The notes: generated by a model not told the origin, from the letters alone. A DNA stretch of 64,000 bases from an uncultured Desulfatiglans sp. (GCA_964460435.1 CAYWRH010000005.1:1791-65790); one strand, 5' to 3'; positions 26,529 to 44,815 are shown, numbered from the stretch's first letter. Made by a program: numbers and translations.

Positions 26529-27032
26529 CTACAGCGGAAGCATATAATCGGCAAGCAGGCTTGATGTCTTTCTCATGTTCATGCTCATAAACCTTGCAAT
26601 CCCCTTAAGCAGTTTTACCCCGATCTGGGGATGCTGTTCAAGCATCTCCTCAAACCTTTTTCGCGTAAGTATCAGAAGCGTGGTCTGTGATTTTGCCCTT
26701 ACTGTGGCTGACCTGGGAAAATCATCGATAATTGACATCTCACCTATAGAGCGGCCCTTGCCCAGTGTGGCTATTACCACCTCTTTGCCCTTCTCGTTTT
26801 TTTTGACAACATCAAGTGCGCCCCTGGTGACAAAACAGACAAAATCCCCCTTGTCACCCTCTGAAAATATAACCTCCCTGGGCTGGAAATCCATAAAGTT
26901 CATGCTTCTGGCCAGTATCTTCAGATCATCAGACTTGATCTGGTCAAACATGGGGATTTCAATAAGAAGGTCTATCACCGCCTTGGAAAGATTAGTCTCA
27001 CGTATCTCTTTTTCCTTAACCATATCCCCCAT
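26529..27032 (-). CDS. cyclic nucleotide-binding domain protein (stand-alone)
   Basis: The cNMP-binding signature GEMSIIDDFPRSATVRA is present. At 167 aa there is no output domain. Confidence 0.8.
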   Translation of the reverse strand: MGDMVKEKEIRETNLSKAVIDLLIEIPMFDQIKSDDLKILARSMNFMDFQPREVIFSEGDKGDFVCFVTRGALDVVKKNEKGKEVVIATLGKGRSIGEMSIIDDFPRSATVRAKSQTTLLILTRKRFEEMLEQHPQIGVKLLKGIARFMSMNMRKTSSLLADYMLPL

Positions 27033-27123: not shown

Positions 27124-28929
27124 TCATGAAAAGTCTTCATGCTGAAAAAGATACCCTCTTGCCTTTAGTAATGCAGATAAAGAAAAGATAATAGGGTATA
27201 GCCTTTCATGATACCATAACCTTGCAAAATAAAGGCCTATTGGGCTTGGGGGCAGTGTTTCATGGCTGTTAACTCTTTCAATCAATGCCTCTGATCCATT
27301 CAAGAGCGCCTTTTTGAGAGCATCAGCCAGATTATCGGATAGACCATCAATAGCAGCGCAGCCGGAAATGGCATCAAGGGCAAGGGCGGTTTCTTCAATT
27401 GTGCCTGGCGCATCCTTGTCTCCTCCCCATGTGCCATTTTCCTTTTGAACCTTGATCAGCCATTTAAGGCCTTTAACAAGTGATCCTTTCATGGGGGAAA
27501 ATTCATCTGATTTCATGAGGGTTAGGTGAGAAATGACCTTTGCTGTTCCATAAACAGGGTTTTCCATCCCTTTGGCATGTTCATTGCCGAACCACAGAGG
27601 CGCCCATGAGCCATCAGGCCTCTGCGCATTTTGTAAAAACCTGAAACCCTTCTGAATAGCCCTGCTCACAGACCTCTGTAATGGCTGGTTAATGCGGGGC
27701 ATCCATGAAGCCCATGCGGCAAGCGCATGGGCTGTAAGGTCTGTGGCGCTTTTGTCAAATGGAAGTCTGCCCCACCCTTTGCAGAAGGTGGGTATGCCCC
27801 CATCACTGTTCTGGAGGCCAATGAGCCATGAAACTCCCGCCTCAACTGCATCAAGGGAATATTCTGCAACAGGGTCAAGTGTCAGTATGGCCATGAGGGC
27901 GCTTGCTGTGTCATCTGCATCAGGCACTCCCCCGGGGAGATCTGTCCATGCCCATCCTCCAGGATCAGCCCCGGTATATGGATGCATCTCCCTCTGCTGC
28001 TGGTCAAGAAGCCATGTTAAAATGGATCTTTGCATAGCTTCACTGATATTGTCTTTCTTTAACGCCCGGACAGCCATTGTGGAGACCCAGGTGGAAAGAT
28101 TTGTGTCTATAGGCCAGCTCCCGTCTTTTCGCTGGCTGTGAAGCAAAAAATTAACCCCCTTTTTTGTAACAATGTGCCCTCTGTGTCCGCAGCCCGCAAG
28201 GCTCATGACAACAAAGCTGGTCAGGGGCGTAGCCTCCAGAAAGCCACCGTTCTCAGGCTGGATTTTTGTCAGGACATTAAGCGATTTAGAAAGCGCCAGT
28301 CTGCGGATGCACCTCTGAACTGGATTACAGGGCGGGCGATGAAAAAATATAGCCTGGCCTATTGCGATAAGCGCTGGAAGGGCATAGCTTACAACAGGCA
28401 GATTAAGCCATTTGAACCATTGCCTGGGAAGAGCCGCAAGTTCAAAGGGAAGGCCATGAAGCTGCTTCCACCCATCCACCCCCAGTCTGCCAGCAAGGGC
28501 ACACATTGTGAGAATAGGAATGGAGAATGTCCTGTCAGGGCCATATGCTGTTAATATTGATCTAACAATATCATCCGGATCAATGGAACCTGCGATGCTG
28601 CATATATATTTTTCGCAGGCATCAAGGGAATCCTTTTTGGGTGATGCAACTGTCATGGCGCTGTAAACAAGAAGGGTGGTGCTCAGGTTGCTTTTGCTTA
28701 TAGTTGTATCGCCCCATCCTCCATCAGGGTTCTGGTTTTTTATGAGCCAGCTTAGGCCCGAATCAATATTTGACTCATAGGCCTTTTTATCCGCGGAGGC
28801 CAACGCAAAAAGTGCGGTAGCTGTGGAAAGGGCGCTGCTGCTCAACTCTCCGCTCCAGTAACCTTTATCATTGCTTTCGGCGATGAGCATCTGTTTTAGC
28901 CTAATAATGGTAGAGTCAATATCTGTCAT
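27124..28929 (-). CDS. squalene-hopene-cyclase-like class II terpene cyclase
   Basis: DADDTA matches the DxDDTA protonation motif. At least five QW-type repeats are present (QNPDGGWG, QRKDGSWP, QNSDGGIP, QRPDGSWAP, QKENGTWGG). The N-terminal GYWSGEL is as in SHC. Confidence 0.75.
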   Translation of the reverse strand: MTDIDSTIIRLKQMLIAESNDKGYWSGELSSSALSTATALFALASADKKAYESNIDSGLSWLIKNQNPDGGWGDTTISKSNLSTTLLVYSAMTVASPKKDSLDACEKYICSIAGSIDPDDIVRSILTAYGPDRTFSIPILTMCALAGRLGVDGWKQLHGLPFELAALPRQWFKWLNLPVVSYALPALIAIGQAIFFHRPPCNPVQRCIRRLALSKSLNVLTKIQPENGGFLEATPLTSFVVMSLAGCGHRGHIVTKKGVNFLLHSQRKDGSWPIDTNLSTWVSTMAVRALKKDNISEAMQRSILTWLLDQQQREMHPYTGADPGGWAWTDLPGGVPDADDTASALMAILTLDPVAEYSLDAVEAGVSWLIGLQNSDGGIPTFCKGWGRLPFDKSATDLTAHALAAWASWMPRINQPLQRSVSRAIQKGFRFLQNAQRPDGSWAPLWFGNEHAKGMENPVYGTAKVISHLTLMKSDEFSPMKGSLVKGLKWLIKVQKENGTWGGDKDAPGTIEETALALDAISGCAAIDGLSDNLADALKKALLNGSEALIERVNSHETLPPSPIGLYFARLWYHERLYPIIFSLSALLKARGYLFQHEDFS

Positions 28930-29831
28930 GGAATATCCGCAAGATAACCCAAGGCAAGAAGCCCGTAATAGGTATATTCACAATCCACTATGGGATCAGC
29001 CCAGTTCCCGCTGAATCCGCCCTTTTGATTCCACAGGCTGTCAAGAAAATCAAGATGCAGTTCGCGCCGGATCTTTTTAGTGTTGCTGTATGAAAGGGCT
29101 TGAAGGGCGGTTGCAGTGCTTAATAGATCAGGCATATTTAAGGGGCTGTCACTTTTAAAGGCGCAGAAGCCCCCGTTTTTACTTTGACGGTTCATCAACC
29201 ATTCGTGAGCCCTTTCAGGCAAAGGGTAAGAAAGCATATGATACGAACAGATGGCGGCTGCTGTTGAAGGGGTGGTTGATATTCCCCCGGCCTCTTCATT
29301 TGCAAAGCCGCCATCATCCATTTCAAGCCTTTTAATGCAGTTAATAATCGGTTCAGTATCAGACAGGGCAATATCAATATCCTGGCATATGGCAAGGGTG
29401 AGAAAGGCGCCGTAGAGATTGCCATTATTATCAGATCGACTGGTGCTGAAGCCCCCGTCAGCACACCTGAGCATATCAAGCCGTCTTTTCACCCCCTCCT
29501 TTATGCCGGAGTCAACAGGATAGGGTGAAATATCAGCCAGATTTCTGTATGAGCGTGCGAGGCTATAAAGATGAACAAGGTCAAGTTCGCTAATGTTGTC
29601 AAAGCTGTCAAGGTATCTTTTAAAAAGATCAACAGGCAGGCTGCATCCAAGGGAAATAGCCAGTTCAATACCAAATGCAGTATAGTAAAGATCGCTTTTA
29701 TTGTCACGGCCCAAAAAACCCCCGTCCGCACATATCTGGTTCATCACATACCTCCTCACAAGGTCTGTGGATTTATTGAGCAGTTCCGGGGCCCTGGTTA
29801 GGGCCTGAAGCATCTTGTGTCTTAATGTCAT
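28926..29831 (-). CDS. prenyltransferase beta-subunit-like (PFTB-repeat, alpha-alpha toroid) protein
   Basis: Five (D/N/K)GGF repeats are present (ADGGF, ADGGF, DDGGF, KNGGF, QKGGF). The stop overlaps the cyclase start in an ATGA arrangement. The true start may be internal (about 29747), because the listed start overlaps the upstream gene by 59 nt. Confidence 0.6.
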   Translation of the reverse strand: MTLRHKMLQALTRAPELLNKSTDLVRRYVMNQICADGGFLGRDNKSDLYYTAFGIELAISLGCSLPVDLFKRYLDSFDNISELDLVHLYSLARSYRNLADISPYPVDSGIKEGVKRRLDMLRCADGGFSTSRSDNNGNLYGAFLTLAICQDIDIALSDTEPIINCIKRLEMDDGGFANEEAGGISTTPSTAAAICSYHMLSYPLPERAHEWLMNRQSKNGGFCAFKSDSPLNMPDLLSTATALQALSYSNTKKIRRELHLDFLDSLWNQKGGFSGNWADPIVDCEYTYYGLLALGYLADIP

Positions 29832-31482
29832 TGCAACATCCCATCAAGTCAAAGTCACCAAATATTTTACTTATTACCCGGCGCAGAAGCCCTTTAAGGG
29901 CAGGGTTTTTAAGTTGTGTTATTGTATCAATCGCCCTTGTCTTTACCTCTCTCATCAGATCACGCACACCATTATCAATCTTGAGATCCCTAAAGATACT
30001 AACTATTCTGTCAAATTCATGCTCTCTCACATATTTCTCCTGCCATGCCCTCTGAAGGAGCTTACGGGCCTGGCCGCTCGCCTGTTCTGTGGCAAGGGCC
30101 GTTACAATGGAGGGACGATCAAGCAGCCGGTGCATATCCTCTTCCGGCATCAGATAGTCCTCAAGATCATCGCCTATCTGGTATGCTACGCCTATGGCCT
30201 CACTGTAATGATGAAGAGAGTCTAATGTGGAATCATCAGCGCCTGCCAGCATGGCGCCAAGGGTCAGCGCAACATCAAATGCCGGGGAGGTCTTTTTTCT
30301 GAAAATTTCGAGAACCTGGCCGGAAGAAAGGCATCCTGGGTTTCGTGACCAGACAAGCTCCTCACCCTGGCCCAGGCACATAACACGGTGTGCATGGGCA
30401 GCAATGTTAATCAATGCTGAACGCAGATCCGCACAGGTGTCGAGTTCAGAGAGTAGCTGATATCCCCAGCCGATAAGCAGATCTCCCGCGTTCAGCGCAA
30501 CAGGGACCCCGTATTCTGCATGAAGGGTTTTTTTGCCATAGCGTATCTTATCGTCATCTTCTATGTCATCATGGATAAGCGATGCCTTGTGAAAACATTC
30601 CACTGCCACAGCCAGTTTTTGTATGTTTGACTCAGGGATTTTCCTGTGAGGATCAAGGGCAGAAATGGCGCAGGCTGCCAGAAATGGCCGCCACCTTTTT
30701 CCCTTAAGCGCCATCCATTCTATTGCAAGCGCCTCTGTCTGCGTGCCTTCAGGCTTTATAAGCAATTCCAGCGCCTCGCTTATGAACCATGCGTTAACCC
30801 TGGCGTATTCCTTTTTAAGATCAAGCCGCGGTATTAAAGGATTATCGGATATTTCATAAACAGCCTCCCACAGCCAGTCTGTATCTATTGCCGTGTCTTT
30901 ACACCCGTCATAGAGCAGGGGAACAGCTATTCCTGGCACAGCGCCAGCCTCCATGTATGGAAAGACCTTTTCAAGCGTTGCGAGGCAGCTTACCCCTATA
31001 ACCGCCTCGATTCTGCCTGTTTCAATAAGAGACATAACGATTGGAGAACCCTCGGCAATAAGCACAGCATACCCAAGCTCCTCTGCCTGTCGCTTAAAAT
31101 CATGTATGATGCATGACCCGCAGTGTTCACACAGAAGGCCGATCTCATCTGTCTGTGCCCCGCAGTTTATTGAAGAACTAAGGCACTTTGGCATGAGCAA
31201 TAGACGCTTGCTATACGGGGTTGCCGCAACTGTTTCACGCCACAGTGCATTGTTAATAAGGACAGCGGCAAAGTCTGCATATTGGATTGGCAGGTTATTC
31301 TCCTTAAGCACGCCTGTCGCATGATATTTAAGTTCATTGATCCCAAGCGGGGCGCAGAGTTCATTTTTCTGTACATATTCAGTTATTAACTGACGCAGAT
31401 CCTCCCGCTCCTTCAGGGTGGGCGGCACCTCTTTCTGGGTTGGATGAATGTTGTATATTGATGCAGGGACAAATTGGTTCAT
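29773..31482 (-). CDS. DUF116-like Cys-rich domain fused to a trans-polyprenyl diphosphate synthase
   Basis: The N-terminal half (LLLMPKCL...CEHCGSC...IGVSC) resembles DUF116. The C-terminal half has the FARM motif LIHDDIEDDD and the SARM motif GDDLED. The start at 31482 forms an ATGA overlap with the radical SAM stop, and the listed start at 31509 is less likely. Confidence 0.75.
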   Translation of the reverse strand: MNQFVPASIYNIHPTQKEVPPTLKEREDLRQLITEYVQKNELCAPLGINELKYHATGVLKENNLPIQYADFAAVLINNALWRETVAATPYSKRLLLMPKCLSSSINCGAQTDEIGLLCEHCGSCIIHDFKRQAEELGYAVLIAEGSPIVMSLIETGRIEAVIGVSCLATLEKVFPYMEAGAVPGIAVPLLYDGCKDTAIDTDWLWEAVYEISDNPLIPRLDLKKEYARVNAWFISEALELLIKPEGTQTEALAIEWMALKGKRWRPFLAACAISALDPHRKIPESNIQKLAVAVECFHKASLIHDDIEDDDKIRYGKKTLHAEYGVPVALNAGDLLIGWGYQLLSELDTCADLRSALINIAAHAHRVMCLGQGEELVWSRNPGCLSSGQVLEIFRKKTSPAFDVALTLGAMLAGADDSTLDSLHHYSEAIGVAYQIGDDLEDYLMPEEDMHRLLDRPSIVTALATEQASGQARKLLQRAWQEKYVREHEFDRIVSIFRDLKIDNGVRDLMREVKTRAIDTITQLKNPALKGLLRRVISKIFGDFDLMGCCNDIKTQDASGPNQGPGTAQ

Positions 31483-33050
31483 ACCCTTTCCTCCATTCTG
31501 CCAGAGCAACCTTTTTCAGCATATGGCTGCATCTTTCCTGCCATCCTGCGGAATGCCATCCTCCAGTTTGCTATCTCTGCCCGGCCCATTACCTGCAGGG
31601 TCATGCGCTTCAGTAAAGATACCCCCCCGGCACGCTCATTGTCCCACATGAGTCTTGGAACCCGCCTGAAATTTATTTCATAGCAGGTACGGTATAACTC
31701 AAGATGATCAGCACGCATATTTTTGATGGAAAAATTGCCGGTAGCAAAAATATCCTCTTCAAGGATCGGTTCATAAAATACAGGGAAAACCACAAGCTCC
31801 TGGCCTTCAAATCCCTTTACCAGTCTGAGTGTATCAGCAACATCAGAGGGCTCTTCACCAGGCAGACCGAGAATAATACTTATTACCGGAAAAAAGCCGG
31901 TACGGGTCAACCTGCCAACTGCCTCGCCTGCCATTTCAGGCCAGTCATCAGGAGAAAAGGGGGCTATCTTTCCGGGGCTGTTGGCTGCCACCAGCCTGCC
32001 GTTTGCGCTTTCAACGCCCATGTTTACCCATAGATAGCGGGCCGGTTTTTCCCATGTTAAAAGATGCCTTATCTCCCTTAATTCCTTTTCGTCAAGCTGC
32101 AGCACACTTGTGACATTGGCGTGATCTATCTGCATAAAAGAAAGACCCTTTAGCTGTTTCATCTGTGTGAGCAGAGCAGCAAGGGCATTGAAGTCAGGCC
32201 TTAATGAAGAAGAGCCGTAACGGAAAAAATCCTCGCTACCGCTTACTACTGACCTTACTCCTGCTGCGAGGTTTGTCTCAAGGTCGGCCATGATGAGATC
32301 ATTAGAAAGATGTCTCATTCCCTTATGGGCCATGCTGCAGAAGCGGCATCCCCGGCCGCAGCCCCTTGAGAGTTCAATGATCCCCATCATTGATGCGCCG
32401 CATATGGGCTGAATCCTGTGTGCCCCTGTTCCATCTGCAATAACCTGATGGTCTGCAAATCTGCCTTCGAGCAGATCAATGACAAGCTCAGGCCCTTTAT
32501 CCTCAAAATATCCCTCATATATGATATCAATGCCAAGTTCAGCCGCTTCATCCGGGTAGGCTAGAACTTGCCATGCACCTGTCCCACCAAAGAGAACCTT
32601 AAACGGGTAGCGTTCCTTTTCTGCCCTGAGCATAAGAAGAGTTTCCCTGGTCCATTTTTTTGTATAGAGCTCACCATTCCAGAATGCGCTTGTGGTTGTA
32701 TTGCTCATGCCGTGACCGAGCGGATCACTTGAGCTGAAAAGCACAAGCTTTACCCATGGCCCTAATAGATCAGGCAGCCGTTCCGGTGTGGTGCATACCA
32801 CATCGTCAGCATCAAGGCCTGCGGAGGCACGAAGGGAAGATTCAATACGGCGAAGCCCGAGAGGGGCTGTATGGGCACGCCCCTGCGCATCGGTGTGTAC
32901 CTTTGGACTCAATAAGTGGCGCATCAGCGGCCCTGGAACCTGCGTGGTCTGCATGGTGGCAAAGATGCCTTCGAACAGGATGCTGTAGGATGCAGAAAGG
33001 GTGCGGTCTGCAACCAGGATAACAGAGGGTTTTAAGGCGCTTTTATTCAT
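31479..33050 (-). CDS. radical SAM protein with N-terminal B12-binding-like domain
   Basis: The motif CGRGCRFC (CxxxCxxC) is preceded by a Rossmann-like N-terminal domain. At 523 aa its size and architecture match class B radical SAM enzymes. Confidence 0.8.
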   Translation of the reverse strand: MNKSALKPSVILVADRTLSASYSILFEGIFATMQTTQVPGPLMRHLLSPKVHTDAQGRAHTAPLGLRRIESSLRASAGLDADDVVCTTPERLPDLLGPWVKLVLFSSSDPLGHGMSNTTTSAFWNGELYTKKWTRETLLMLRAEKERYPFKVLFGGTGAWQVLAYPDEAAELGIDIIYEGYFEDKGPELVIDLLEGRFADHQVIADGTGAHRIQPICGASMMGIIELSRGCGRGCRFCSMAHKGMRHLSNDLIMADLETNLAAGVRSVVSGSEDFFRYGSSSLRPDFNALAALLTQMKQLKGLSFMQIDHANVTSVLQLDEKELREIRHLLTWEKPARYLWVNMGVESANGRLVAANSPGKIAPFSPDDWPEMAGEAVGRLTRTGFFPVISIILGLPGEEPSDVADTLRLVKGFEGQELVVFPVFYEPILEEDIFATGNFSIKNMRADHLELYRTCYEINFRRVPRLMWDNERAGGVSLLKRMTLQVMGRAEIANWRMAFRRMAGKMQPYAEKGCSGRMEERV

Positions 33051-33897
33051 CCATTTTCCCGCCCGAAGAGGCCTTTTTATGAATACGGTCTAGATCGGCA
33101 GGCGAGAGCGCCTGCAATACATCCATGGGGATATCGAGCTGTTTGTGCAGCATTTCAAGCATATTTGCCTTAGGCCCTGGTTCAGGAGAAAAACGCTCAC
33201 CCCGGCTGCTTCTGTTACGCAGCATGGCATAGATATCCTTTTCCTGCAAAAGATCAATCCTCGCCGAAGAAGGGGTGATCTTTGATTCATCAATTTCATC
33301 CCCGTTTATGGGCGATTGATTTATCTTTGGAAAAATAATTGCCCTTGCCGGACAGACACGGGCGCATGCAGGGCAGTTGTTTTTGCAGTTATCAGGCTGT
33401 GAAACCCTGACATCTCCATCATCATCAACAGAGTAAACGCCAAAGAGACAGAAGTTAAAGCAGAGCTTGCAGCGCCGGCAGCGCCTCATGTCTATTACAG
33501 GGAACCAGGGTTCCTGCCTGCCGCTGTGTTTAATAAAATCCATTTTCCGGCCAGACTCAACTGAATTGCGCTCTTTTACGGCATCCATAATCTTTTCAGG
33601 TGAAAGGGAGCGGCAGTTAAGAATCCTTACAGAACAATCAAGCGGAAGAGGTGCTTCTGCCATATCAAACAGGGAGCGTATGGCCCTCTCATAACAGGCG
33701 ATGATAGTAAGTTCAGGGCACTGCGCCCATTCCCTCAATAAAGGGTCATGCCGGGCTGCCAGCCCGCACAGATCATCAACTGCGATGACTTCTAAACCGG
33801 ATTGACCGAGATTCTGCAATATGTATTCACAGGATTCTTTTGAAACAAGCTCCCTGTGAATGCATCTGCAGTATATTACCAAATCCTTTCCGGACAT
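33043..33897 (-). CDS. 4Fe-4S dicluster ferredoxin-domain protein
   Basis: Cluster motifs CRRCKLCFNFC and CKNNCPACARVCP are present. The stop overlaps the radical SAM start. Confidence 0.7.
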   Translation of the reverse strand: MSGKDLVIYCRCIHRELVSKESCEYILQNLGQSGLEVIAVDDLCGLAARHDPLLREWAQCPELTIIACYERAIRSLFDMAEAPLPLDCSVRILNCRSLSPEKIMDAVKERNSVESGRKMDFIKHSGRQEPWFPVIDMRRCRRCKLCFNFCLFGVYSVDDDGDVRVSQPDNCKNNCPACARVCPARAIIFPKINQSPINGDEIDESKITPSSARIDLLQEKDIYAMLRNRSSRGERFSPEPGPKANMLEMLHKQLDIPMDVLQALSPADLDRIHKKASSGGKMDE

Positions 33898-33999
33898 ATT
33901 ATATCACCACCATAAAGACGGCTGGATTTCACGGACAGGCCGTGGAATGACAATTTTTACTCCTGTCTGTTCTTTCCTGTATTCTCTTTTTTTTTTAAC

Positions 34000-34089
34000 C
34001 TGCGCCCTGAACCATGAGCCTTGTGCCTTGAGCCCTTTACCTGTTTTTTAACCCTCGAACCCTGGAATCCTCGACCCCTTGAACCCCTA
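34000..34089. repeat. two adjacent degenerate tandem repeats (7-bp x6, then 8-bp x5) directly 3' of the minus-strand stop
   Basis: The 7-mers at 34000-34041 are ctgcgcc ctgaacc atgagcc ttgtgcc ttgagcc ctttacc. The 8-mers at 34050-34089 are aaccctcg aaccctgg aatcctcg accccttg aaccccta. A T10 run lies at 33987-33996. Confidence 0.6.
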
Positions 34090-35385
34090 TTTTAAAACCA
34101 CACACTTCATCTGCTTCTGGTCCCTTATAATAAGTTTTCCGTCACTCAATGCAAGCGGCGCCCATGACTGTTTTGTATCAAGCAGTTCAGCCTTCGCAAG
34201 CACCCTGAATTCTGTGGGGTCTGGCTCAATAAGGTATAATGTCTTTTCTCCGTCGCTGCTTATTATTATATCGTCGGCAAGTATATACCCGCCCTTGTCA
34301 AAGCCGGGTTTTCTTTTGGTCTTCCATTTAATATTGCCTGAAAGATCCATGCAGCAAAGGCCATCCTTCGTGGAGTTGTCACTGCATTGGCTGTATAGAT
34401 GCCCTTTATAAAAAATTGCAGGGTGAACATGGGAGATGAACTCTTTTGTAGCCATTGCCTCATTTACCTTATAGGAACCGCCTTTTTTATCGATCTGCAG
34501 AAGGACTGACCCTGCATTATACCCTCCTGTAATAAAAATCTGGCTGTTACTGACCTGTGTGGCATTGGGAACTGGAATACCGCACTGCCAGCCTTCATAT
34601 GTCCATAAAAGGGCGCCGTTTTTAGGGTTATATCCAAGGACAGCCCCCTTGACAGAGCCGTCACGGCTGCTGGCAGTTATCATGATCAGATGATCTTCTC
34701 CTGAAATTTTTGCTATGGAGGGCGAAACATAACATGCCTCTCCTTTAAGTTTACCTGTTTTCCAGATAATGTTTCCGTTCTCTTTGTCATATGCAACCAG
34801 ACCTGTCTCTTTGGTCTGCGAAGCAACTATTACCATGTTCTTATAGACAAGGGGATTCTGGGCAATGGCCCATGTAGGATACTCACGACCGCCAAAATCG
34901 GTCCAGATATTTTTATTCCAGAGTGGCTTACGGGTATTTATGTCCAGACAGTAAAAGTTGCCGAAAAGGTCACAGATGTATATCCTGCTGCCATCAATAG
35001 TGGGTGTTGACCTTGTGCCGTCATTGCTGACCGACCCCGGCGCCTCATTGGTGAATTGCCACTCCTCCTCTCCTGTCATGAGATCAAGGCAGCGGAGAAT
35101 GTTTGTCCTGTCTTCAACACGGTCATAAACATATACCTTGCCCTTGCTTATTGCTGCCCCTCCAAACCCTTCGCCAAGTGGGATTGTCCACAACACCTTT
35201 GGCCCTTCGGCAGGCCAGGAGCGTAACAGACCCTTTTCATTGGATACGCCGTTTCTGTCTGGGCCAAGGTACTGGGGCCAGTCAGAGGCAGAAACCTGAT
35301 TAAAGACAAAAAGGATAAAAACAGAGACAACCATTGCTATCTTTTTCATAAAGGCTCCTTTCACTAAGTCCTTCAAATTAACCAT
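34087..35385 (-). CDS. PQQ/BamB-like beta-propeller repeat protein, secreted
   Basis: A signal peptide is followed by WPQYLGPDRNG and repeated blade motifs of the type 'VY...dg.l.clD..tGe..W'. It is a paralogue of 42374-43780. Confidence 0.7.
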   Translation of the reverse strand: MVNLKDLVKGAFMKKIAMVVSVFILFVFNQVSASDWPQYLGPDRNGVSNEKGLLRSWPAEGPKVLWTIPLGEGFGGAAISKGKVYVYDRVEDRTNILRCLDLMTGEEEWQFTNEAPGSVSNDGTRSTPTIDGSRIYICDLFGNFYCLDINTRKPLWNKNIWTDFGGREYPTWAIAQNPLVYKNMVIVASQTKETGLVAYDKENGNIIWKTGKLKGEACYVSPSIAKISGEDHLIMITASSRDGSVKGAVLGYNPKNGALLWTYEGWQCGIPVPNATQVSNSQIFITGGYNAGSVLLQIDKKGGSYKVNEAMATKEFISHVHPAIFYKGHLYSQCSDNSTKDGLCCMDLSGNIKWKTKRKPGFDKGGYILADDIIISSDGEKTLYLIEPDPTEFRVLAKAELLDTKQSWAPLALSDGKLIIRDQKQMKCVVLK

Positions 35386-35574
35386 GGCCGGAATTTACCA
35401 TATTGTTGTTTTATTGTTCAATATTATTCGGGCCTCTTCATTTACATATATGTTTATGGTGAAACCATGATAATTATCTCTATATATACGATTTTTGTTG
35501 AATATTTTAATCGCAGTCCTTAACTTGTTAGAAATTAAAAAAATCATCTACCAGAACAGCTTTTTGAGGGTTTT

Positions 35575-36771
35575 ATGATGGGCAATATATCCCGTACGGT
35601 TTTATGGACAACATTGGCCGTGATTATTTGTTTTCTACTGGCATGGGGTATAAACAGCCATCGCACACAAAGTAAAATACCTGTCAATGAGCATGTGCAG
35701 CAGGGCATTAAGGTTCCGGCCAACCCGGGGGGCAACTGGCCCCAGTTTCATGGCAATCAGTCACAGAGAGGTTTTGTTACGGGTGAACTCCCGGACAGTC
35801 TTAATCCTGTATGGAGATTCAAGGCAGGGGCAGGGGTCAAATCATCCCCTGCAATTGTTGATAATAGGGTATATATCGGTTCCTCAGATAAGCATATGTA
35901 TGCCATAGATGTTCTAACAGGCAAGCAAATCTGGGCAGCACTTCTTGACGGTGAGGTAGAGGCATCTCCCACGGTTATCGACAAAAGGGTCTATATCGGG
36001 ACGCTTGCCGGAACCCTCTATGCGCTTGATTCAGAAACAGGTTCTGAAGGCTGGCGATTCAGCGCCGGCGACAAGCTGACCGGCGGGGTAAACTGGTTCA
36101 GGGGCGAGAGCAACAGACTCTATCTGCTTGCGGGCAGTTACGATTCAATTCTTTATTGTATTGATGCTGTTACCGGAAAGGAGGCCTGGCAATATGAAAC
36201 AGGCAATTACATCAACGGCTCTCCGGCAGTGAATGACAGATACTGTGCCTTTGGCGGATGCGATGCTGTGATACATATTATCAATCTAACCGACGGCAAA
36301 AGGGCCGGTGAGATCGATACGGGCGCTTATATTGCCGCATCTGCCGCTATACAGGATGACCTTGTTTTTGTCGGCAATTATGAGGGTGAGTTATTAAAGG
36401 CATCGCTCTCCACACATGAAACCATATGGCGGTATAGGATTAATAAGGGGGCATTTATCTCTTCCCCTGCTGTTACTGATGACGCAGTAGTAATAGGAGG
36501 GGGAGATATGAATATACACTGTATTGATATAAAAACAGGTATGGCCAGGTGGACATATAAAACCCTGGATGCAGTAAACAGTTCTCCTGTGATTGTCGGT
36601 AACAGGGTTCTTGCCGGGAGTGATGACGGCAGGTTATATATGTTAAACATGGCAGACGGCAAGCTCATATGGTCATATGAAACCGGCAGATCAATAACCT
36701 CTTCCCCTGCTGTGGCAGATGGCATGGTCGTAGTGGGGTGTGATGACGGGATGGTATACTGTTTCAAATGA
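35575..36771 (+). CDS. PQQ/BamB-like beta-propeller repeat protein
   Basis: NWPQFHGN is followed by about 8 repeats of the type 'RVYIGS.DK.MYAID..TGK..W'. An N-terminal hydrophobic anchor is present. Confidence 0.75.
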   Translation: MMGNISRTVLWTTLAVIICFLLAWGINSHRTQSKIPVNEHVQQGIKVPANPGGNWPQFHGNQSQRGFVTGELPDSLNPVWRFKAGAGVKSSPAIVDNRVYIGSSDKHMYAIDVLTGKQIWAALLDGEVEASPTVIDKRVYIGTLAGTLYALDSETGSEGWRFSAGDKLTGGVNWFRGESNRLYLLAGSYDSILYCIDAVTGKEAWQYETGNYINGSPAVNDRYCAFGGCDAVIHIINLTDGKRAGEIDTGAYIAASAAIQDDLVFVGNYEGELLKASLSTHETIWRYRINKGAFISSPAVTDDAVVIGGGDMNIHCIDIKTGMARWTYKTLDAVNSSPVIVGNRVLAGSDDGRLYMLNMADGKLIWSYETGRSITSSPAVADGMVVVGCDDGMVYCFK

Positions 36772-38066
36772 AGATAATACAGATAACACCGGGGTCAGGG
36801 GATAATTTTTACTGTGAGAACTGCCTGAGAGATCAGGCCCTTGTCAGGGCGCTTTTTGCTCAGGGTCATGAGATATTAATGGTGCCCCTTTATCTGCCCA
36901 TTAAACTCGATTCGCAAAAGGTGACTATCAAGGCGCCCATTTTTTACGGGGGCATCAATGTCTATCTGCAGCAGAAATTGGGGTTGTTCCGCAGGAGCCC
37001 CAGGTGGCTGGACAGACTGTTTGATAATCGTTCACTGCTGTCAAGGGTCTCAAAAAAGGCAGGCATGACCCGTTCCCGTGACCTTGGTGAAACCACTATA
37101 TCCATGCTTAAGGGCGAAAATGGTAATCAGGCAAAGGAGCTGGAACGGCTCATTGAATGGCTGTCAAACGATAATGAAAGACCTGATGTGATAATACTCT
37201 CCAACGTGCTTCTGGGAGGGCTTGCAGCGACTCTGAAAAGGCGTCTGAATGTGCCTGTGGTCTGTATGCTTCAGGATGAGGAGGCTTTTATTGACAGCAT
37301 GGATGAGCCTTACAGCAAAGAGGTGTGGAGGCTCATAATGGAATGCTCCCTTGAGATAGATGCCTTTATATCTGTAAGCAGGGCATACACAAAACGTATT
37401 GCCCCAAGGCTTGGTATTTCAGAAGAGAAGATCAATACGGTGTACATGGGCATAGATTTAAATGAATACCCGCCTGCCATAAAGGCGCCTGAAAGGCCGG
37501 TTATAGGTTTTCTTTCACGCATGTGCCCCCTGCGCGGGCTTGATATACTTATTGATACATTTATACTGATCAGACAGAACCCTGAACTGAGGATGTGCCG
37601 GTTACAGATATCAGGAGGCAGATCACAGGCTGATGAGCCTTTTTTAGGAAATATGAAAAAGCGCCTTGAAAAGGAGGGCATTATAAATGATGTGACATTT
37701 ATGCCCGAATTCCTTGGCGAGGGTCGCAGAGAGTGGTTAAAGAGCATTTCTGTGATGTGTGTCCCTGAAAGGGAGGAGGCGGCTTATGGCCTTTTTGCCA
37801 TTGAGGCACAGGCAGCAGGGGTGCCTGTTGTTGTGCCAAAGATAGGCATATTCCCTGAGATGCTTGATCTGACAAAAGGAGGCCTGATTGTTGATCCAAA
37901 TACACCTCAAAATTTTGCAGCAACCCTTACCCCCCTTTTGCTTCACCCTGATATAGCATTCAGCCTCGGACAAAAGGGAAGAAAGGGGATAGAGGCCCAT
38001 TTTGATATACAGAAGAGCTCAAAGAATCTGGTCGGGGTGCTTGAAAAGGTTGTAAAGATGGCATAG
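36768..38066 (+). CDS. glycosyltransferase, GT4 (GT-B fold) family
   Basis: The C-terminal motif is PEREEAAYGLFAIEAQAAGVPVVVPKIG, an E-x7-E type. The start forms an ATGA overlap with the upstream propeller gene. Confidence 0.7.
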   Translation: MKIIQITPGSGDNFYCENCLRDQALVRALFAQGHEILMVPLYLPIKLDSQKVTIKAPIFYGGINVYLQQKLGLFRRSPRWLDRLFDNRSLLSRVSKKAGMTRSRDLGETTISMLKGENGNQAKELERLIEWLSNDNERPDVIILSNVLLGGLAATLKRRLNVPVVCMLQDEEAFIDSMDEPYSKEVWRLIMECSLEIDAFISVSRAYTKRIAPRLGISEEKINTVYMGIDLNEYPPAIKAPERPVIGFLSRMCPLRGLDILIDTFILIRQNPELRMCRLQISGGRSQADEPFLGNMKKRLEKEGIINDVTFMPEFLGEGRREWLKSISVMCVPEREEAAYGLFAIEAQAAGVPVVVPKIGIFPEMLDLTKGGLIVDPNTPQNFAATLTPLLLHPDIAFSLGQKGRKGIEAHFDIQKSSKNLVGVLEKVVKMA

Positions 38067-38131
38067 AGCATAGCGCATAGGGCATAGCGCATAGAGCATA
38101 GGGCATAGCGCATAGGGCATAGGGCAAAGAG
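38062..38131. repeat. 7-bp tandem repeat CATAGNG x10 beginning in the stop codon of the glycosyltransferase
   Basis: Units: catagag catagcg cataggg catagcg catagag cataggg catagcg cataggg cataggg caaagag. Confidence 0.85.
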
Positions 38132-38206
38132 AAAAGAGTAGGATTTTTTAGCTGGGTAAAAGGCTCCCCGCCCCATTGTGCGTGAGGGGTTGGGGGAGGG
38201 GAAGGA

Positions 38207-38899
38207 ATGAAATTCATGCTGGAGTTAATTGATGTAACAAAGGGCTATGGCAGCCCGGGTTTGCCAGGATATGTGGCTGTCCTGAACTCCATAAACCTCA
38301 AACTTAAAGCTATGGATGCTGTTGCCGTGCTTGGGCCGTCAGGGTGCGGGAAGAGCACACTGCTTAATATAATCGGGGCACTTGATAAACCTTCATCGGG
38401 GCAGGTGAAGTTTATGGGGCAGGATCTCTCTACCCTTGATGAACCTGCCCTTGCCCGTATCAGGAACAAGGAGATCGGGTTTGTATTTCAGATGCATCAT
38501 CTTTTGCCCCACTGCACTGTGCTTGAAAATGTGCTTGTGCCGACACTCGCTTACCCTGACAGGGCCAAGAGCAGTTCACTTAAAGAGAGGGCTGTCAGCC
38601 TGATAGAAAGGATGGGGATCAGTGACTGTATGAATCGTCGCCCAGGTGAGATTTCAGGCGGAGAGAGGCAAAGGGCCGCAGTTGCAAGGGCCTTGATCAA
38701 TTCTCCAAAACTGCTTCTGGCCGATGAACCGACCGGGTCGCTTGATCATGAAACAGCAGTAAGCGTGATGGATCTATTAATCAGCCTTAACCGCACAGAG
38801 AATATCACCCTTGTTGTTGTGACCCATGCAAATGACCTGGCGCAGCTGTTTAAAAGGGTTTTCACAATTACTAAAGGCAGGCTTTCAGATGAAAAATAA
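38207..38899 (+). CDS. ABC transporter ATP-binding protein (MacB/LolD/YbbA-type)
   Basis: Walker A GPSGCGKST, signature ISGGERQR and Walker B LLLADEPTGSLD. Confidence 0.9.
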   Translation: MKFMLELIDVTKGYGSPGLPGYVAVLNSINLKLKAMDAVAVLGPSGCGKSTLLNIIGALDKPSSGQVKFMGQDLSTLDEPALARIRNKEIGFVFQMHHLLPHCTVLENVLVPTLAYPDRAKSSSLKERAVSLIERMGISDCMNRRPGEISGGERQRAAVARALINSPKLLLADEPTGSLDHETAVSVMDLLISLNRTENITLVVVTHANDLAQLFKRVFTITKGRLSDEK

Positions 38900-38931
38900 C
38901 AGCTCATGGAAATAGCACTGGGGCATACAGA

Positions 38932-41900
38932 ATGACAATAGTAAGGCTGGCCATAAGGAGTATTATCTTTTATTACAGGATGAATATTGCCCTTATCCTT
39001 TCAGCATCTGTTGCAACTGCAACCCTTAGCGGGGCGCTTTTTGTTGGTGATTCTGTAAAGGCGACACTTAAGCATGCCTTTTATGCTAGGCTTGGAAAAA
39101 CAGTTTTTGCTGTAGCTCCAGGTGACAGGTTCTTCACGGAGGGCTTGAGTTACCGGCTTATGAAACAGGGGATTGAAACCGCCCCTGTGCTGAGTATGCC
39201 AGGGATGATAACCCGCGGAGACGGGGCAGTGCGCGTAAACAGGGTAAATGTTTTGGGCATTGATGGCCGGTTTTTCAGTCTGTCCATGGCAGGGAAGGCA
39301 CCTGGAGAGCTTGAAGATGGGGCTGTATTGATAAACACGGCCCTTATGAGACGTCTTGCATCAGGAACAGAGAGTGTTAATGAGGTGGTGCTGCGTTTTG
39401 ATAACCCCCCGCTGATATCACGCAATATTGTGCTTGCGCCATTAAAGGAGAGCACCATATCGGCACGTCTGCCTGTAACAGGAATGGTGGATGACAACCA
39501 TTTCGGCAGATTCAGCCTTGAATCAAATCAGGCAGAGCCATTAAATATATTTGTGCCCATTTCATGGCTGCAGAGAGAGATCAGGCGTGAAGGGGCTATT
39601 AACCTGCTTCTTATCCGGAATAACCCCTTAAAGTATGATGCATCTAAAATAGATAGGGCGATTTCTTCTGAATGGCAGCTTCCAGATGCAGGGGCAGAGC
39701 TGAAGAGCAGGGGAGAAGATGCTGTTGAACTTGTGAGTTCAAGGGTCTTTATTGATACTGCTTTATCTGATGCAGCCCTTAAGGCAGAACCGGATGCCAT
39801 CCCTGTCCTGACCTATTTTGTAAACGGGCTTAAGGCAGGTGACAGGGTTACCCCATATTCCATGGTTACAGCAGCAGAGAGAAAAGGGGAATTTGAGGAC
39901 ATATTTCCTGAAGGCATGAAGGATGATGAGATTGTAATCAATGAGTGGCTCGCTGATGATCTTGAGGCAAAGGTGGGCGATCAACTCATCATCAAGTATT
40001 ACAGGCCTGACGGGTGGCAGAGGCTTGAGGAGGCACAGAGGGCCTTCAGGATATGCCGGATTATCCCCATTGAAGGGGCTGCATCTGATAGAACCCTTGC
40101 GCCTGAGCTGCCGGGGCTCTCTGACGCAGAGAATTGCAGCGAGTGGGATGCATCACTGCCCATAAATCTCGATCTTATCAGGGATAAGGATGAGGCCTAC
40201 TGGGATACATACAGGGGAACGCCAAAGGCATTTGTTACACTTGCTGCGGGAAAGGAGATGTGGGCCAGCTCATATGGCACCTTTACGGCGATCCGTTTTA
40301 AGGCCGGACCAAAGGAAAAGAATGCCATTGAAGAAAATATGATCAGAAGGGCAAATCCGGCGAACATAGGGTTATCTGTAATTCCGGTCTATGAAACCGG
40401 TATAAAGGCAAGCGCCGGAGGAACCGATTTTGGGCAGCTCTTCCTTGGCCTGAGCATGTTTCTGATAATCTCGGGCGTCATCCTTACATGGCTTTTATTC
40501 AGTTTCAGCATTGAAGGGAGAAAAGGTCAGACAGGTATGCTTCTGGCAATAGGCTTTCCTGTGAAACGTCTGAGAAGGCTTTATCTTGCCGAAGGGCTCT
40601 TTATTGCCTTATCAGGCGCCATTATCGGGACCCTGTTCAGCCTTTTATACACGAGGGCGCTCATATTCGGGCTTTCAAATGCATGGCAGGACGCAGTGGC
40701 GGGTATGACTGTTCAATACTCGGTAACAATTGCTTCCGTGTGCATTGGCTTTTTTTCCGGGTTTATTATTGCAATAGTGGCAATGGCCTTTACCCTTAAG
40801 CGGCAGATGAGGTTAGGCGCGCATGACCTATTGGCCGGAAATGAGCCGGTCTGTACAAATAAAGGCAAAACTAACAGAAAGGGAAAAGCAGGGTGGCTAA
40901 TCCCAGCCCTTTTTCTTCTCGGGGCAGCCATGATAATTATTCTGGGCATCTCAGGCGGGAAAAGTGCTGAGACAGGCGCATTTTTCGGCGCAGGCATGCT
41001 GATGCTCTTATCTATTATATTAATGATCAGAACGGTTTTTGCTTTATATGGTAGCAGGCATTCCAGTCGTTTGATTTCCATAAATTCCCTGGCCTTGAGG
41101 AATAATGCACGTAAAAGGGGAAGAAGCCTTGCTGTTATCAGCATGCTTGCATGCGGTCTCTTCATGATTGTTGCAGTGAGCGCTAACCGTAAAAACCCTT
41201 ATGCAGGCTCAGAGATACCTTCATCAGGCACAGGGGGGTTCAGCCTTTACGCTGAGTCTTCTGTGCCGGTATTTCATGACCTTAATTCTCTCTCAGGCAG
41301 GGAACAGTGGGGCATGGATTCATCTGTACTGAAGGGCACAGATATCTTAGGCCTAAGGGTGCTTGAAGGCGATGATGCAAGCTGCCTTAACCTTAACCGT
41401 GTTAATAACCCGCGTATAATAGGGGTTAAGCCGGATTTCCTAACCAAACGAAAGGCCTTTTCATTTCAAACGCTGGATATACCTGAGTATAAGAATAGTC
41501 CGTGGAATATCCTGGAGCACAATTATGGCCATAACACTATTCCCGCTGTGGGAGATTACCCCACTGTATACTGGGGGCTTGGAAAAGAGACTGGGGAGAT
41601 GCTTGTTTACAAAAACAGCAGGGGCGAGGAGGTTAAGGTTCGTATTGCCGGTATGATTGAGAGTTCCATATTGCAGGGGAGCATTGTAATATCAGAAGAA
41701 AATATGCTTGAATATTTTCCGGAGGTGGAGGGTTTCAGGGCATGGCTTATAGATACCCCCATAAATAAAGGCTCTAAGGTAATGGAGCATCTCACAAAAA
41801 GGATGGCAGATGCAGGGTTATCTGTTGAGACATCTGCTGAGCGTCTTGACATCTTTAACCGCATGGAGAATACCTATCTTAACATCTTTCTTGTGCTGGG

Positions 41901-42252
41901 CGGCCTTGGCCTTATCCTTGGTTGTATTGGTCTGGGGCTTATTGTTGCAAGAAACATTTTAGAGCGTCAGGCCGAGCTTGCCATGATGAGGGCAGTGGGT
42001 TTCAGCAGAGGCTCCATTATGAAGATGGTATTTTATGAACACCTGTACCTTCTGGGAGCAGGCCTAATATCAGGGTTTATTTGTGCCTTGATTTCTGTTA
42101 TACCCACAATAAAAACAGTATCAGGAGGGCTTCCCGTCGGGCTGGTACTGATTGTGACCACCCTGACGGGGGTAAGCGGGGTTATCTGGGTGCTGGCATC
42201 AATAATTATTGCACTGAAAGGGGAGATATTGGCCCCTTTAAGAAATGAATAA
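38932..42252 (+). CDS. ABC transporter permease with two FtsX-type modules and two large extracytoplasmic domains (1106 aa)
   Basis: Two sets of FtsX-like TM bundles (about aa 490-620 and aa 980-1100) are each preceded by a TM helix and a soluble domain of about 250-430 aa. It follows the ABC ATPase gene. Confidence 0.8.
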   Translation: MTIVRLAIRSIIFYYRMNIALILSASVATATLSGALFVGDSVKATLKHAFYARLGKTVFAVAPGDRFFTEGLSYRLMKQGIETAPVLSMPGMITRGDGAVRVNRVNVLGIDGRFFSLSMAGKAPGELEDGAVLINTALMRRLASGTESVNEVVLRFDNPPLISRNIVLAPLKESTISARLPVTGMVDDNHFGRFSLESNQAEPLNIFVPISWLQREIRREGAINLLLIRNNPLKYDASKIDRAISSEWQLPDAGAELKSRGEDAVELVSSRVFIDTALSDAALKAEPDAIPVLTYFVNGLKAGDRVTPYSMVTAAERKGEFEDIFPEGMKDDEIVINEWLADDLEAKVGDQLIIKYYRPDGWQRLEEAQRAFRICRIIPIEGAASDRTLAPELPGLSDAENCSEWDASLPINLDLIRDKDEAYWDTYRGTPKAFVTLAAGKEMWASSYGTFTAIRFKAGPKEKNAIEENMIRRANPANIGLSVIPVYETGIKASAGGTDFGQLFLGLSMFLIISGVILTWLLFSFSIEGRKGQTGMLLAIGFPVKRLRRLYLAEGLFIALSGAIIGTLFSLLYTRALIFGLSNAWQDAVAGMTVQYSVTIASVCIGFFSGFIIAIVAMAFTLKRQMRLGAHDLLAGNEPVCTNKGKTNRKGKAGWLIPALFLLGAAMIIILGISGGKSAETGAFFGAGMLMLLSIILMIRTVFALYGSRHSSRLISINSLALRNNARKRGRSLAVISMLACGLFMIVAVSANRKNPYAGSEIPSSGTGGFSLYAESSVPVFHDLNSLSGREQWGMDSSVLKGTDILGLRVLEGDDASCLNLNRVNNPRIIGVKPDFLTKRKAFSFQTLDIPEYKNSPWNILEHNYGHNTIPAVGDYPTVYWGLGKETGEMLVYKNSRGEEVKVRIAGMIESSILQGSIVISEENMLEYFPEVEGFRAWLIDTPINKGSKVMEHLTKRMADAGLSVETSAERLDIFNRMENTYLNIFLVLGGLGLILGCIGLGLIVARNILERQAELAMMRAVGFSRGSIMKMVFYEHLYLLGAGLISGFICALISVIPTIKTVSGGLPVGLVLIVTTLTGVSGVIWVLASIIIALKGEILAPLRNE

Positions 42253-42260
42253 AAGAGTGT

Positions 42261-42340
42261 TTACCGCTGAGACACAGGGCACAGAGAAATGCTGTTTAAA
42301 ATAAATTAACTCTGTGACATCTGCGCCTCTGTGGTGATAA
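42261..42340. repeat. imperfect inverted repeat related to the TTCACC-type elements (CACAGAG units)
   Basis: The left arm is TTACCGCTGAGACACAGGGCACAGAG and the right arm is CTCTGTGACATCTGCGCCTCTGTGGTGATAA. The termini resemble those at 7103-7183. Confidence 0.45.
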
Positions 42341-42373
42341 AACAGTATCAGTATTATGTAAAATGGAATAAGA

Positions 42374-43780: not shown

Positions 43781-43784
43781 AATC

Positions 43785-44783: not shown

Positions 44784-44815
44784 AGGTTAAAACAGGTTTC
44801 AGACCTGTCTATAAA

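Follow-up and report, generated by a model that had tools for sequence, protein, structure and literature searches.

We analysed a five-gene cassette on the minus strand of a 64,000-nt stretch of DNA from an uncultured Desulfatiglans sp. (GCA_964460435.1, CAYWRH010000005.1:1791-65790; hereafter the window, from whose first letter all positions are counted). The cassette (27124-33897) encodes (i) a ferredoxin with an additional four-cysteine (4-Cys) domain, (ii) a radical S-adenosylmethionine (SAM) enzyme, (iii) a DUF116 domain fused to a trans-polyprenyl diphosphate synthase (PPS), (iv) an alpha/alpha toroid that resembles prenyltransferase beta subunits and (v) a class II, i.e. protonation-initiated, terpenoid cyclase (Table 1). 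All five open reading frames (ORFs) had been recognized at these coordinates in a first-pass annotation made from the sequence alone, and Pfam and NCBIfam support the domain assignments given there for each product. The five genes form one operon, with overlaps at all four junctions. Three start/stop overlaps had been listed before and are present: 8 nt (ATGAATAA) at 33043-33050 between the ferredoxin and radical SAM genes, ATGA at 31479-31482 between the radical SAM and DUF116::PPS genes, and ATGA at 28926-28929 between the toroid and cyclase genes. The fourth junction, unlisted there, overlaps too: the DUF116::PPS and toroid genes share 59 nt out of frame if the toroid starts at the ATG at 29831, or 41 nt if it starts at Met7. 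A downstream start at Met30 is unlikely because conservation in the toroid family begins at residues 4-9.

Table 1. Cassette genes and adjoining features, with positions in the window
Feature	Position	Strand	Size	Remarks
4-Cys::2x[4Fe-4S] ferredoxin fusion	33043-33897	minus	284 aa	presumed to supply electrons to the cassette
Radical SAM enzyme, type A	31479-33050	minus	523 aa	N-terminal Rossmann-like domain and barrel
DUF116::PPS	29773-31482	minus	569 aa	from the ATG at 31482
Single-barrel prenyltransferase-beta-like alpha/alpha toroid	28926-29831	minus	301 aa	presumed prenyl-binding accessory subunit
Class II (protonation-initiated) terpenoid cyclase	27124-28929	minus	601 aa	DADDTA at residues 337-342
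Leader 5' of the ferredoxin gene	33898-34086	minus	189 nt	degenerate 7-8-nt tandem repeats; presumed operon promoter region
Secreted PQQ/BamB-like beta-propeller protein	34087-35385	minus		Pfam PQQ_2
Cyclic nucleotide monophosphate (cNMP)-binding ORF	26529-27032	minus		91 nt downstream of the cyclase gene

The cyclase had been described as a class II enzyme with a DADDTA motif, and comparisons of family, residues and fold agree with this. It matches the Pfam families SQHop_cyclase_N (58 bits) and SQHop_cyclase_C (122 bits). In an alignment with the squalene-hopene cyclase (SHC) of A. acidocaldarius, D337, D339 and D340 correspond to D374, D376 and D377, H401 to H451, D397 to D447 and Y460 to Y495; the SHC catalytic residues are retained, including those whose loss the first-pass annotation had named as a point against its proposal. 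Some cavity aromatics are kept (W281 = SHC W312 and W446 = W489) and others are changed conservatively (SHC F365 to W328 and Y420 to F382), while VPDxDDT is present in all 80 full-length cyclase homologues. The earlier count of at least five QW motifs is on the generous side: only four strict QxxxGxW repeats occur (Q66, Q266, Q436 and Q495), the rest being degenerate. An AlphaFold2 model (mean predicted local distance difference test score, pLDDT, 86.4) has the two-domain (beta-gamma) alpha/alpha-barrel fold. Its Foldseek matches to SHC (1sqc/2sqc) reach an E-value of 1e-19 and a template-modelling (TM) score of 0.71-0.73 at ~20% identity, and the model also matches oxidosqualene cyclase and drimenyl-diphosphate synthase.

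By the curated cut-offs of NCBIfam, however, the protein is not a squalene-hopene cyclase. It scores 106.4 bits against the SHC equivalog TIGR01507 (cut-off 431.1) and 121.4 bits against the subfamily model TIGR01787 (cut-off 322.7), and the cyclase homologue of a second locus (L060) is likewise below the curated SHC cut-offs. Judging from distribution, length, motifs and genomic context, it most probably belongs to the published 'SHC-like/Unk' clade. In two phylogenetic studies, this clade comprises proteins of 550-700 aa from the PVC (Planctomycetes-Verrucomicrobia-Chlamydiae) group and the Acidobacteriota that retain the catalytic residues (PMC7306690, PMC12414744). The window cyclase and its homologues match that description in range, length, catalytic residues and non-squalene context, and we identified no difference between them and the clade. 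According to Santana-Molina et al. (2020), planctomycete SHC-like proteins retain the catalytic residues, and the genomic context of these proteins suggests a non-squalene precursor (PMC7306690). The more recent study (PMC12414744, Molecular Biology and Evolution 2025) states that the function of the clade 'has not been demonstrated', gives cyclases of head-to-tail polyprenyl chains as its sister group, and finds that substitutions in the SHC-type dimer surface are in excess along the stem of the clade. Our literature search found no functional study of 'SHC-like' cyclases, or of class II cyclases paired with radical SAM enzymes in Planctomycetes.

Relatives of the cyclase are numerous (at least 591 in a scan of species genomes) and occur in the Planctomycetota, Verrucomicrobiota, Acidobacteriota, Hydrogenedentota, Sumerlaeota and Victivallales; among the matches listed, the closest homologue is from the Desulfatiglandales. 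For 80 related loci we translated all ORFs, searched them with the window proteins, clustered them and mapped the families; cassettes were counted in the 48 loci where the flank upstream of the cyclase gene measures at least 6.5 kb. In 27 of these 48 loci, the ferredoxin, DUF116::PPS and toroid genes lie beside the cyclase gene with order and strand preserved, and a radical SAM gene stands between the ferredoxin and synthase genes in 26 of the 27 (nine of type A, as in the window, and 17 of type B, described below). Six of the 48 loci hold a partial cassette. The loci span the Desulfobacterota, Planctomycetota, Verrucomicrobiota, Acidobacteriota and Hydrogenedentota. The first-pass annotation had counted against itself two further outcomes, namely genes that are not co-conserved and the same set inside well-characterized hopanoid clusters; the core set is co-conserved, and it was not found inside such clusters.

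Squalene synthase, hpn-type and transporter families are absent from the conserved neighbours in the 80 loci. Within the window, no SQS_PSY domain was found in the scanned ORFs of at least 150 aa (three ORFs, at 58471-59034, 59052-59831 and 63160-63861, were unscanned), and the scanned ORFs outside the cassette include no other isoprenoid or squalene genes. The earlier remark that no squalene synthase or hpnG/hpnH-like gene is visible therefore holds for the scanned window ORFs and for the conserved neighbours. So does its proposal of a terpenoid gene set distinct from the canonical hpn set: the genes are co-conserved, translationally coupled and unaccompanied by HpnH, HpnP or HpnR.

The DUF116::PPS fusion matches both of its constituent families well above their cut-offs (DUF116, PF01976, 112 bits versus 25; polyprenyl_synt, PF00348, 144 bits versus 27). 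Its first aspartate-rich motif (FARM) is DDIED at residue 305 and the second (SARM) is DDLED at residue 438, in line with the chain-elongating prenyl synthase proposed before. Around the FARM, all 39 full-length family members that we examined share a near-identical sequence, ECFHKASLIHDDIED...RYG, except for a few conservative substitutions. An inspection of the chain-length residues before the FARM, which the first-pass annotation had suggested, gave a uniform picture in the same 39 members: Ala occupies position -5, Ser -4 and Phe -8, i.e. small residues at -5/-4 and a bulky one at -8. The nearest solved enzymes, archaeal-type geranylgeranyl diphosphate (GGPP) synthases (5jfq, 1wy0), have Phe or Tyr at -5; the aromatic floor at -4/-5 that is typical of farnesyl diphosphate (FPP) and GGPP synthases is thus not found in this family, and the protein scores below the cut-off of every NCBIfam chain-length equivalog. 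In mutagenesis of GGPP and octaprenyl synthases (Ohnuma, Hemmi, Guo; V73Y/A76Y), the chain reportedly grows past residues -5, -8 and -11. By this rule, small residues at -5/-4 and Phe at -8 would carry the product one helical turn beyond C20, which suggests, by analogy, that the enzyme makes a regular polyprenyl diphosphate of roughly C25-C30.

The DUF116 domain has seven conserved cysteines (100, 107, 118, 121, 124, 166 and 194), including a CxxCxxC motif, and this iron-sulphur (Fe-S)-type domain is fused to the synthase in every family member. A sequence search of the PDB with the domain returned nothing meaningful and no solved relative, and our literature search found no functional study of DUF116 (PF01976/COG1852). 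A DUF116-polyprenyl synthetase fusion has, however, been noted earlier in Pirellula staleyi (Psta_0175; PMC5898192). Also, a stand-alone DUF116 gene in a Bipolaricaulota isolate adjoins genes for IspH, SHC, HpnH and a polyprenyl synthetase. This neighbourhood is a second, independent link between DUF116 and isoprenoid metabolism.

The toroid protein is prenyltransferase-beta-like in family and fold, as annotated before, and consists of a single barrel (Pfam Prenyltrans, 58.4 bits versus a cut-off of 26.5). The profile of its family finds the beta subunit of Rab geranylgeranyltransferase (RabGGTase) as best match (E 9e-11), followed by that of farnesyltransferase (E 5e-9). The likeness does not extend to the metal site. 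The zinc ligands of RabGGTase beta are D238, C240 and H290; in the toroid the aligned positions are D235, L237 and Y286, so that only the Asp is kept, and across the family L237 is nearly invariant and Y286 invariant. Replacement of two of the three ligands makes a catalytic role in protein prenylation unlikely, and no gene for a prenyltransferase alpha subunit occurs among the conserved neighbours in the 80 loci. We also considered the toroid as a second class II cyclase and rejected this, as hhalign against the cyclase family gave a probability of only 53% and 'PDLLST' stands in place of 'PDADDT', without the acidic pair. Judged by these residues, the toroid is probably neither a zinc prenyltransferase nor a proton-donating cyclase. 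Its gene adjoins the cyclase gene in 46 of the 80 loci, and the most economical reading is that it may be a prenyl-binding partner of the cyclase; such a partnership would fit the dimer-surface drift of the SHC-like clade reported in PMC12414744. Two Planctomycetota loci (L004:8199-9974 and L005:7743-9974) have an apparent extra gene between the synthase and toroid genes. Because part of it falls into the toroid family on clustering, it may be a tandem paralogue; the 442-aa ORF in L005 has no Pfam match.

The radical SAM enzyme scores 44.9 bits against Pfam Radical_SAM, and its CxxxCxxC motif (CGRGCRFC at 231-238) is invariant in 25 sequences. With 721 members at E<=1e-5, its family (type A) keeps ~60% identity across phyla. 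The first-pass annotation called the enzyme class-B-like and pointed to a cobalamin (B12)-type radical SAM protein. This stands at the level of fold: the AlphaFold2 model (pLDDT 81) finds MgmA, RimO, TsrM, MiaB and AprD4 as its top Foldseek matches (TM ~0.5, E 1e-15 to 1e-11), with which it shares an N-terminal Rossmann-like domain followed by the radical SAM barrel. As to B12, no match to the Pfam B12-binding family (PF02310) was obtained at E<=0.01, and the best NCBIfam match, TIGR04013 ('B12-binding domain/radical SAM'), reaches 64.6 bits against a cut-off of 251. The fold matches the B12-free AprD4 and the methylthiotransferases equally well as MgmA and TsrM and, as AprD4 exemplifies, a radical SAM fold of this kind can operate without B12. 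Identity to these five proteins is 12-16%. In the N-terminal domain a single cysteine is invariant; a MiaB-type auxiliary cluster in that domain was therefore rejected. The comparison with hopanoid enzymes proposed at the outset was also run, and none of HpnH, HpnP and HpnR appears among the NCBIfam matches of the enzyme at E<=0.01.

The ferredoxin is of the 2x[4Fe-4S] type, as both cluster motifs (CxxCxxCxxxC and CxxxCxxCxxxC, in a domain of residues ~130-190) can be seen directly; among its Fer4 family matches only Fer4_6 reaches the curated cut-off (26 bits versus 25). The core PWFPVID..RC..C..C..FCLF...CK..CPAC.RVCP is kept in 37 loci. The N-terminal domain (residues 1-125) holds Cys10, 12, 44 and 68 in the pattern CxC...DLC...ACYxRA and matches no Pfam family. 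Type-A loci conserve it within the fusion, and in type B it occurs as a separate ~140-aa ORF (e.g. L060:4841-5263). The 4-Cys domain is therefore a further conserved module of the cassette and looks like a small, cysteine-rich, probably metal-binding domain so far undescribed.

The radical SAM slot between the ferredoxin and synthase genes is filled by either of two enzymes, between which BLASTP detects no similarity. The type-B enzyme (396 aa) is SPASM/twitch-like, and that of locus L016 scores 31 bits against the HpnH model (cut-off 225). Type A occurs in the Desulfatiglandales, Sedimentisphaerales, Anaerohalosphaeraceae, other Phycisphaerae and some metagenome-assembled genomes (MAGs) of Pirellulales; type B occurs in the Planctomycetaceae (including isolate SH248), Verrucomicrobiales, Akkermansiaceae, Opitutales, Acidobacteriota, Hydrogenedentales and Tepidisphaeraceae. 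Planctomycetaceae, Verrucomicrobiota and Acidobacteriota are largely aerobic lineages, and the split between the two types broadly matches that between anaerobic and mostly aerobic lineages. Taken as a whole, the cassette is common in those three groups and is not anaerobe-specific, so the anaerobic label that it had been given is not upheld. B12-dependent methylation is not a defining step either, because an unrelated radical SAM enzyme fills the same slot elsewhere.

Type-B cassettes are usually extended upstream by genes for a GcvH-like protein (PF01597, with the lipoyl-Lys motif EGFKA.SD retained), a CobW-like G3E GTPase and the ~140-aa 4-Cys protein (L060:3228-6147, L018, L026, L059, L065, L072, L075 and L078), and are usually flanked by a NifS-like class-V aminotransferase gene. 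The GcvH-, CobW- and NifS-like genes are absent from the type-A cassette of the window. Cultured bacteria carry both forms: Anaerobaca lacustris has exactly the five-gene type-A cassette (L083), and Planctomycetaceae SH248 has a full type-B cassette. Partial cassettes occur in Chthoniobacter flavus Ellin428 and in a Gimesia MAG. Where the cyclase gene of Verrucomicrobiota stands alone or nearly so, a gene for a DCC1-like thiol-disulfide oxidoreductase (PF04134) often lies directly upstream on the same strand (L008:9455-9928, L014, L024, L031, L044, L027 and L055).

In a rough within-family neighbour-joining tree (without support values), most type-A cyclases, including that of the window, form a clade near Phycisphaerae; the clade that holds the cyclases of the window and of the other Desulfatiglandales locus otherwise consists of type-A members from Phycisphaerae and Pirellulales (L003, L004-L015). 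Together with the ~60% identity of the radical SAM enzymes, this suggests horizontal transfer of the whole cassette between phyla. According to a 2025-26 preprint on the distribution of hopanoids, Pirellulales are without SHC and their cyclases belong to sterol synthesis. Five Pirellulales MAGs (L004, L009, L012, L015 and L047) carry the SHC-like cassette, which such surveys may pick up or discard.

Given the observed gene set, catalytic motifs, folds, cross-phylum co-conservation and radical SAM gene replacement, we consider it fairly probable that the operon serves a squalene-independent route to a cyclic polyprenoid, in which a polyprenyl diphosphate is cyclized and tailored by radical chemistry. 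In such a pathway, (i) the synthase domain would elongate an allylic diphosphate with isopentenyl diphosphate to a regular, head-to-tail polyprenyl diphosphate longer than C20; (ii) the DxDD acid of the cyclase would protonate the terminal double bond, so that the chain folds into a polycyclic skeleton; (iii) the zinc-less toroid would act as prenyl-binding partner, either handing over substrate or forming a hetero-oligomer with the cyclase; and (iv) the radical SAM enzyme would carry out a single radical step at an unactivated carbon, either of the chain or of the product, with electrons from the 4-Cys::2x[4Fe-4S] ferredoxin and possibly also from the Fe-S DUF116 domain. The presence of two unrelated radical SAM enzymes in one slot means that this scheme makes no commitment to methylation.

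Several points weigh against this pathway. The two unrelated radical SAM enzymes could mean lineage-specific chemistry or a non-lipid role. In about 15 of the 48 loci, chiefly those of Verrucomicrobiaceae and Chthoniobacteraceae, the cyclase gene is alone; the cyclase can thus do without its neighbours in cis. The C-terminal cavity residues F601, F605, Y609 and Y612 of SHC cannot be aligned to the cyclase, and ring number is therefore not predictable. The chain-length argument carries over rules that come from mutagenesis of other synthases, and the synthase has RYG where its family usually has RRG.

Other explanations were weighed against the same data. The locus might serve ordinary hopanoid biosynthesis, with a divergent SHC acting on squalene made elsewhere and with neighbours that are unrelated or only supply FPP. 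SHC is the best PDB match by sequence and by structure, DxDDTA and the equivalents of H451 and Y495 are retained, and some sources label the homologues 'squalene--hopene cyclase'. Nevertheless, we regard this as highly unlikely: the protein lies far below the curated SHC and squalene-cyclase cut-offs at ~20% identity to SHC, published work sets a clade of such description apart from SHC, the conserved neighbouring synthase does not have the FPP/GGPP-type aromatic floor, and hpnCDE, sqs, hpnG and hpnH are absent from the scanned window ORFs and from the conserved neighbours. A prenyl-conjugate pathway, in which the toroid is a true prenyltransferase that joins the chain to an acceptor (aromatic, quinone, peptide or protein), the cyclase cyclizes the chain of the conjugate and the radical SAM enzyme modifies the acceptor, also has precedents, since MstE and Lon15 cyclize the chain of a conjugate and the sister and neighbouring clades act on meroterpenoid substrates according to PMC12414744. 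It would suit a toroid family closest to protein prenyltransferase beta subunits, a type-B radical SAM enzyme that resembles SPASM peptide maturases, and a type-A enzyme whose top structural matches (MgmA, RimO and MiaB) modify proteins or RNA. It is made improbable, in our view, by the change of zinc ligands from C to L and from H to Y across the toroid family, by the absence of any alpha subunit, UbiA/ABBA-type prenyltransferase, precursor peptide or aromatic-acid gene among the conserved neighbours, and by overlapping genes that leave no space for a small ORF.

A further possibility, which we hold to be rather unlikely, is that the synthase and cyclase alone carry out the terpenoid chemistry, and that the Fe-S/radical SAM half is a maturation or electron-supply module that modifies a cassette protein (the cyclase, the toroid or the type-B GcvH-like protein). 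The interchangeable radical SAM enzymes would be understandable in that case; the GcvH-, CobW- and NifS-like genes of type B are typical of cofactor or metal-centre maturation, and the best structural match of the type-A enzyme, MgmA, is a protein methylase. On the other hand, known radical SAM enzymes of lipid pathways mostly act on isoprenoid lipids (reviewed in PMC13459092), fusion of the Fe-S DUF116 domain to the synthase in every member argues for redox chemistry near the prenyl chain, and no target residue or motif was identified in the cassette proteins.

Within the favoured pathway to a cyclic polyprenoid, a more specific and distinctly speculative idea is that the cassette makes cyclized regular polyprenoids (e.g. 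of the tricyclohexaprenol type, C30 or longer) without O2, and that it is the source of the tricyclic terpane (cheilanthane) biomarkers, still called 'orphan biomarkers' (PMC9247107); we think this improbable as it stands. It is compatible with (i) a reported sister clade that acts on polyprenyl chains, (ii) the small -5/-4 and bulky -8 residues of the synthase (~C25-C30), (iii) the lack of nearby genes for squalene synthesis and (iv) the wide range of the cassette in sediment, soil and aquatic bacteria. If it were true, the radical SAM step would be an O2-independent modification of the skeleton.

The operon can be compared with several characterized systems. With SHC and the hpn cluster it shares the two-domain alpha-barrel fold, the DxDDTA acid with its His/Tyr network, and QW motifs, and both loci include a radical SAM gene. 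It differs in having a head-to-tail polyprenyl synthase instead of squalene synthases, a radical SAM enzyme other than HpnH, HpnP or HpnR, and the extra Fe-S proteins and toroid. Lon15 (longestin, C40) and AtoE (C25), the epoxy-polyprenyl cyclases of the published sister clade, likewise are class II cyclases that act on a regular chain from a dedicated polyprenyl synthase. However, the terminal epoxide on which they act derives from O2, and they are found mainly in Actinomycetes, whereas the window has no epoxidase and its cyclase has the full DxDD typical of alkene protonation. The longestin pathway also methylates its building blocks. In the sporulenol pathway of Bacillus (HepS/HepT, YtpB and SqhC), too, a dedicated synthase makes a non-squalene C35 diphosphate for an SHC-family cyclase. 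That pathway, unlike the one proposed here, begins with a class-I-type step (YtpB), has no radical SAM or Fe-S proteins and is confined to Bacillota; moreover, SqhC groups with SHC, not with the SHC-like clade.

The window locus is one more member of a widespread cassette, with a cyclase family already flagged as 'function unknown' and not a new family, and its biochemistry would appear, from the predicted gene products, to differ from that of every characterized terpenoid pathway. In PMC7306690 and PMC12414744, the clade is named the main uncharacterized branch of the triterpenoid-cyclase superfamily, and knowing its substrate is expected to constrain the evolution of squalene and oxidosqualene cyclization (PMC12414744). 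The accessible text of the two studies does not describe the ferredoxin/radical SAM/DUF116::PPS/toroid cassette, its two radical SAM variants or its members in the Desulfobacterota. Our results thus go beyond those portions of the published accounts in the full set of partners, the non-orthologous displacement of the radical SAM gene, the extra type-B genes, the zinc-less toroid, the invariant chain-length residues and the Desulfobacterota members. What emerges is a compact, coupled cassette in which the ferredoxin, DUF116::PPS and toroid are constant partners and the radical SAM gene is exchangeable. Should the cassette yield a cyclic polyprenoid, this compound could represent a new class of membrane lipid in bacteria and a candidate source of tricyclic terpanes or other orphan biomarkers, and DUF116 would gain its first functional context.

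Upstream of the cassette, the leader contains two tandem arrays detected with Tandem Repeats Finder, one of period 8 (~4.6 copies) at 34050-34086 and one of period 7 (~4.4 copies) at 34004-34034, and a run of ten A. An Rfam search of the leader and of the whole window found no riboswitch, no cobalamin element and no family match to the leader, and consensus scans for promoters and terminators performed no better than on shuffled sequence. Next to the leader lies the PQQ/BamB-like propeller gene. A homologue is found upstream of the ferredoxin gene on the same strand, nearly always directly, in 9 of 13 type-A loci from two phyla, and the propeller is possibly an accessory, or merely a co-transferred neighbour, of type-A cassettes. 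At the other end, the cNMP-binding gene lies at the distance and on the strand reported in the first-pass annotation. It was excluded as a part of the cassette, since related loci are without a homologue, except for two contigs identical to the window.

The remainder of the window carries genes of anaerobe type (multihaem cytochromes, NuoEF-like fusion and ferredoxins), and the closest relatives of its proteins, among the matches listed, are from Desulfatiglandales, Desulfobacteraceae and Desulfatiglans MAGs. The region 34087-52331 contains four paralogous PQQ/BamB-like propellers (34087-35385, 35575-36771, 42374-43780 and 46704-48434), together with a family 4 glycosyltransferase (GT4), an ABC ATPase with a 1106-aa FtsX-type permease and an NHL-repeat protein. 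Two ferredoxin-like proteins, a NuoE/NuoF-like fusion (786 aa) and a GltD-like oxidoreductase are encoded there as well. Elsewhere in the window, and unrelated to the cassette, are a pair of Omp85/TamA-like and TamB genes (10670-12490 and 13486-16548) and a set of MoxR AAA+, DUF58 and SpoIIM-like genes (59833-63163).

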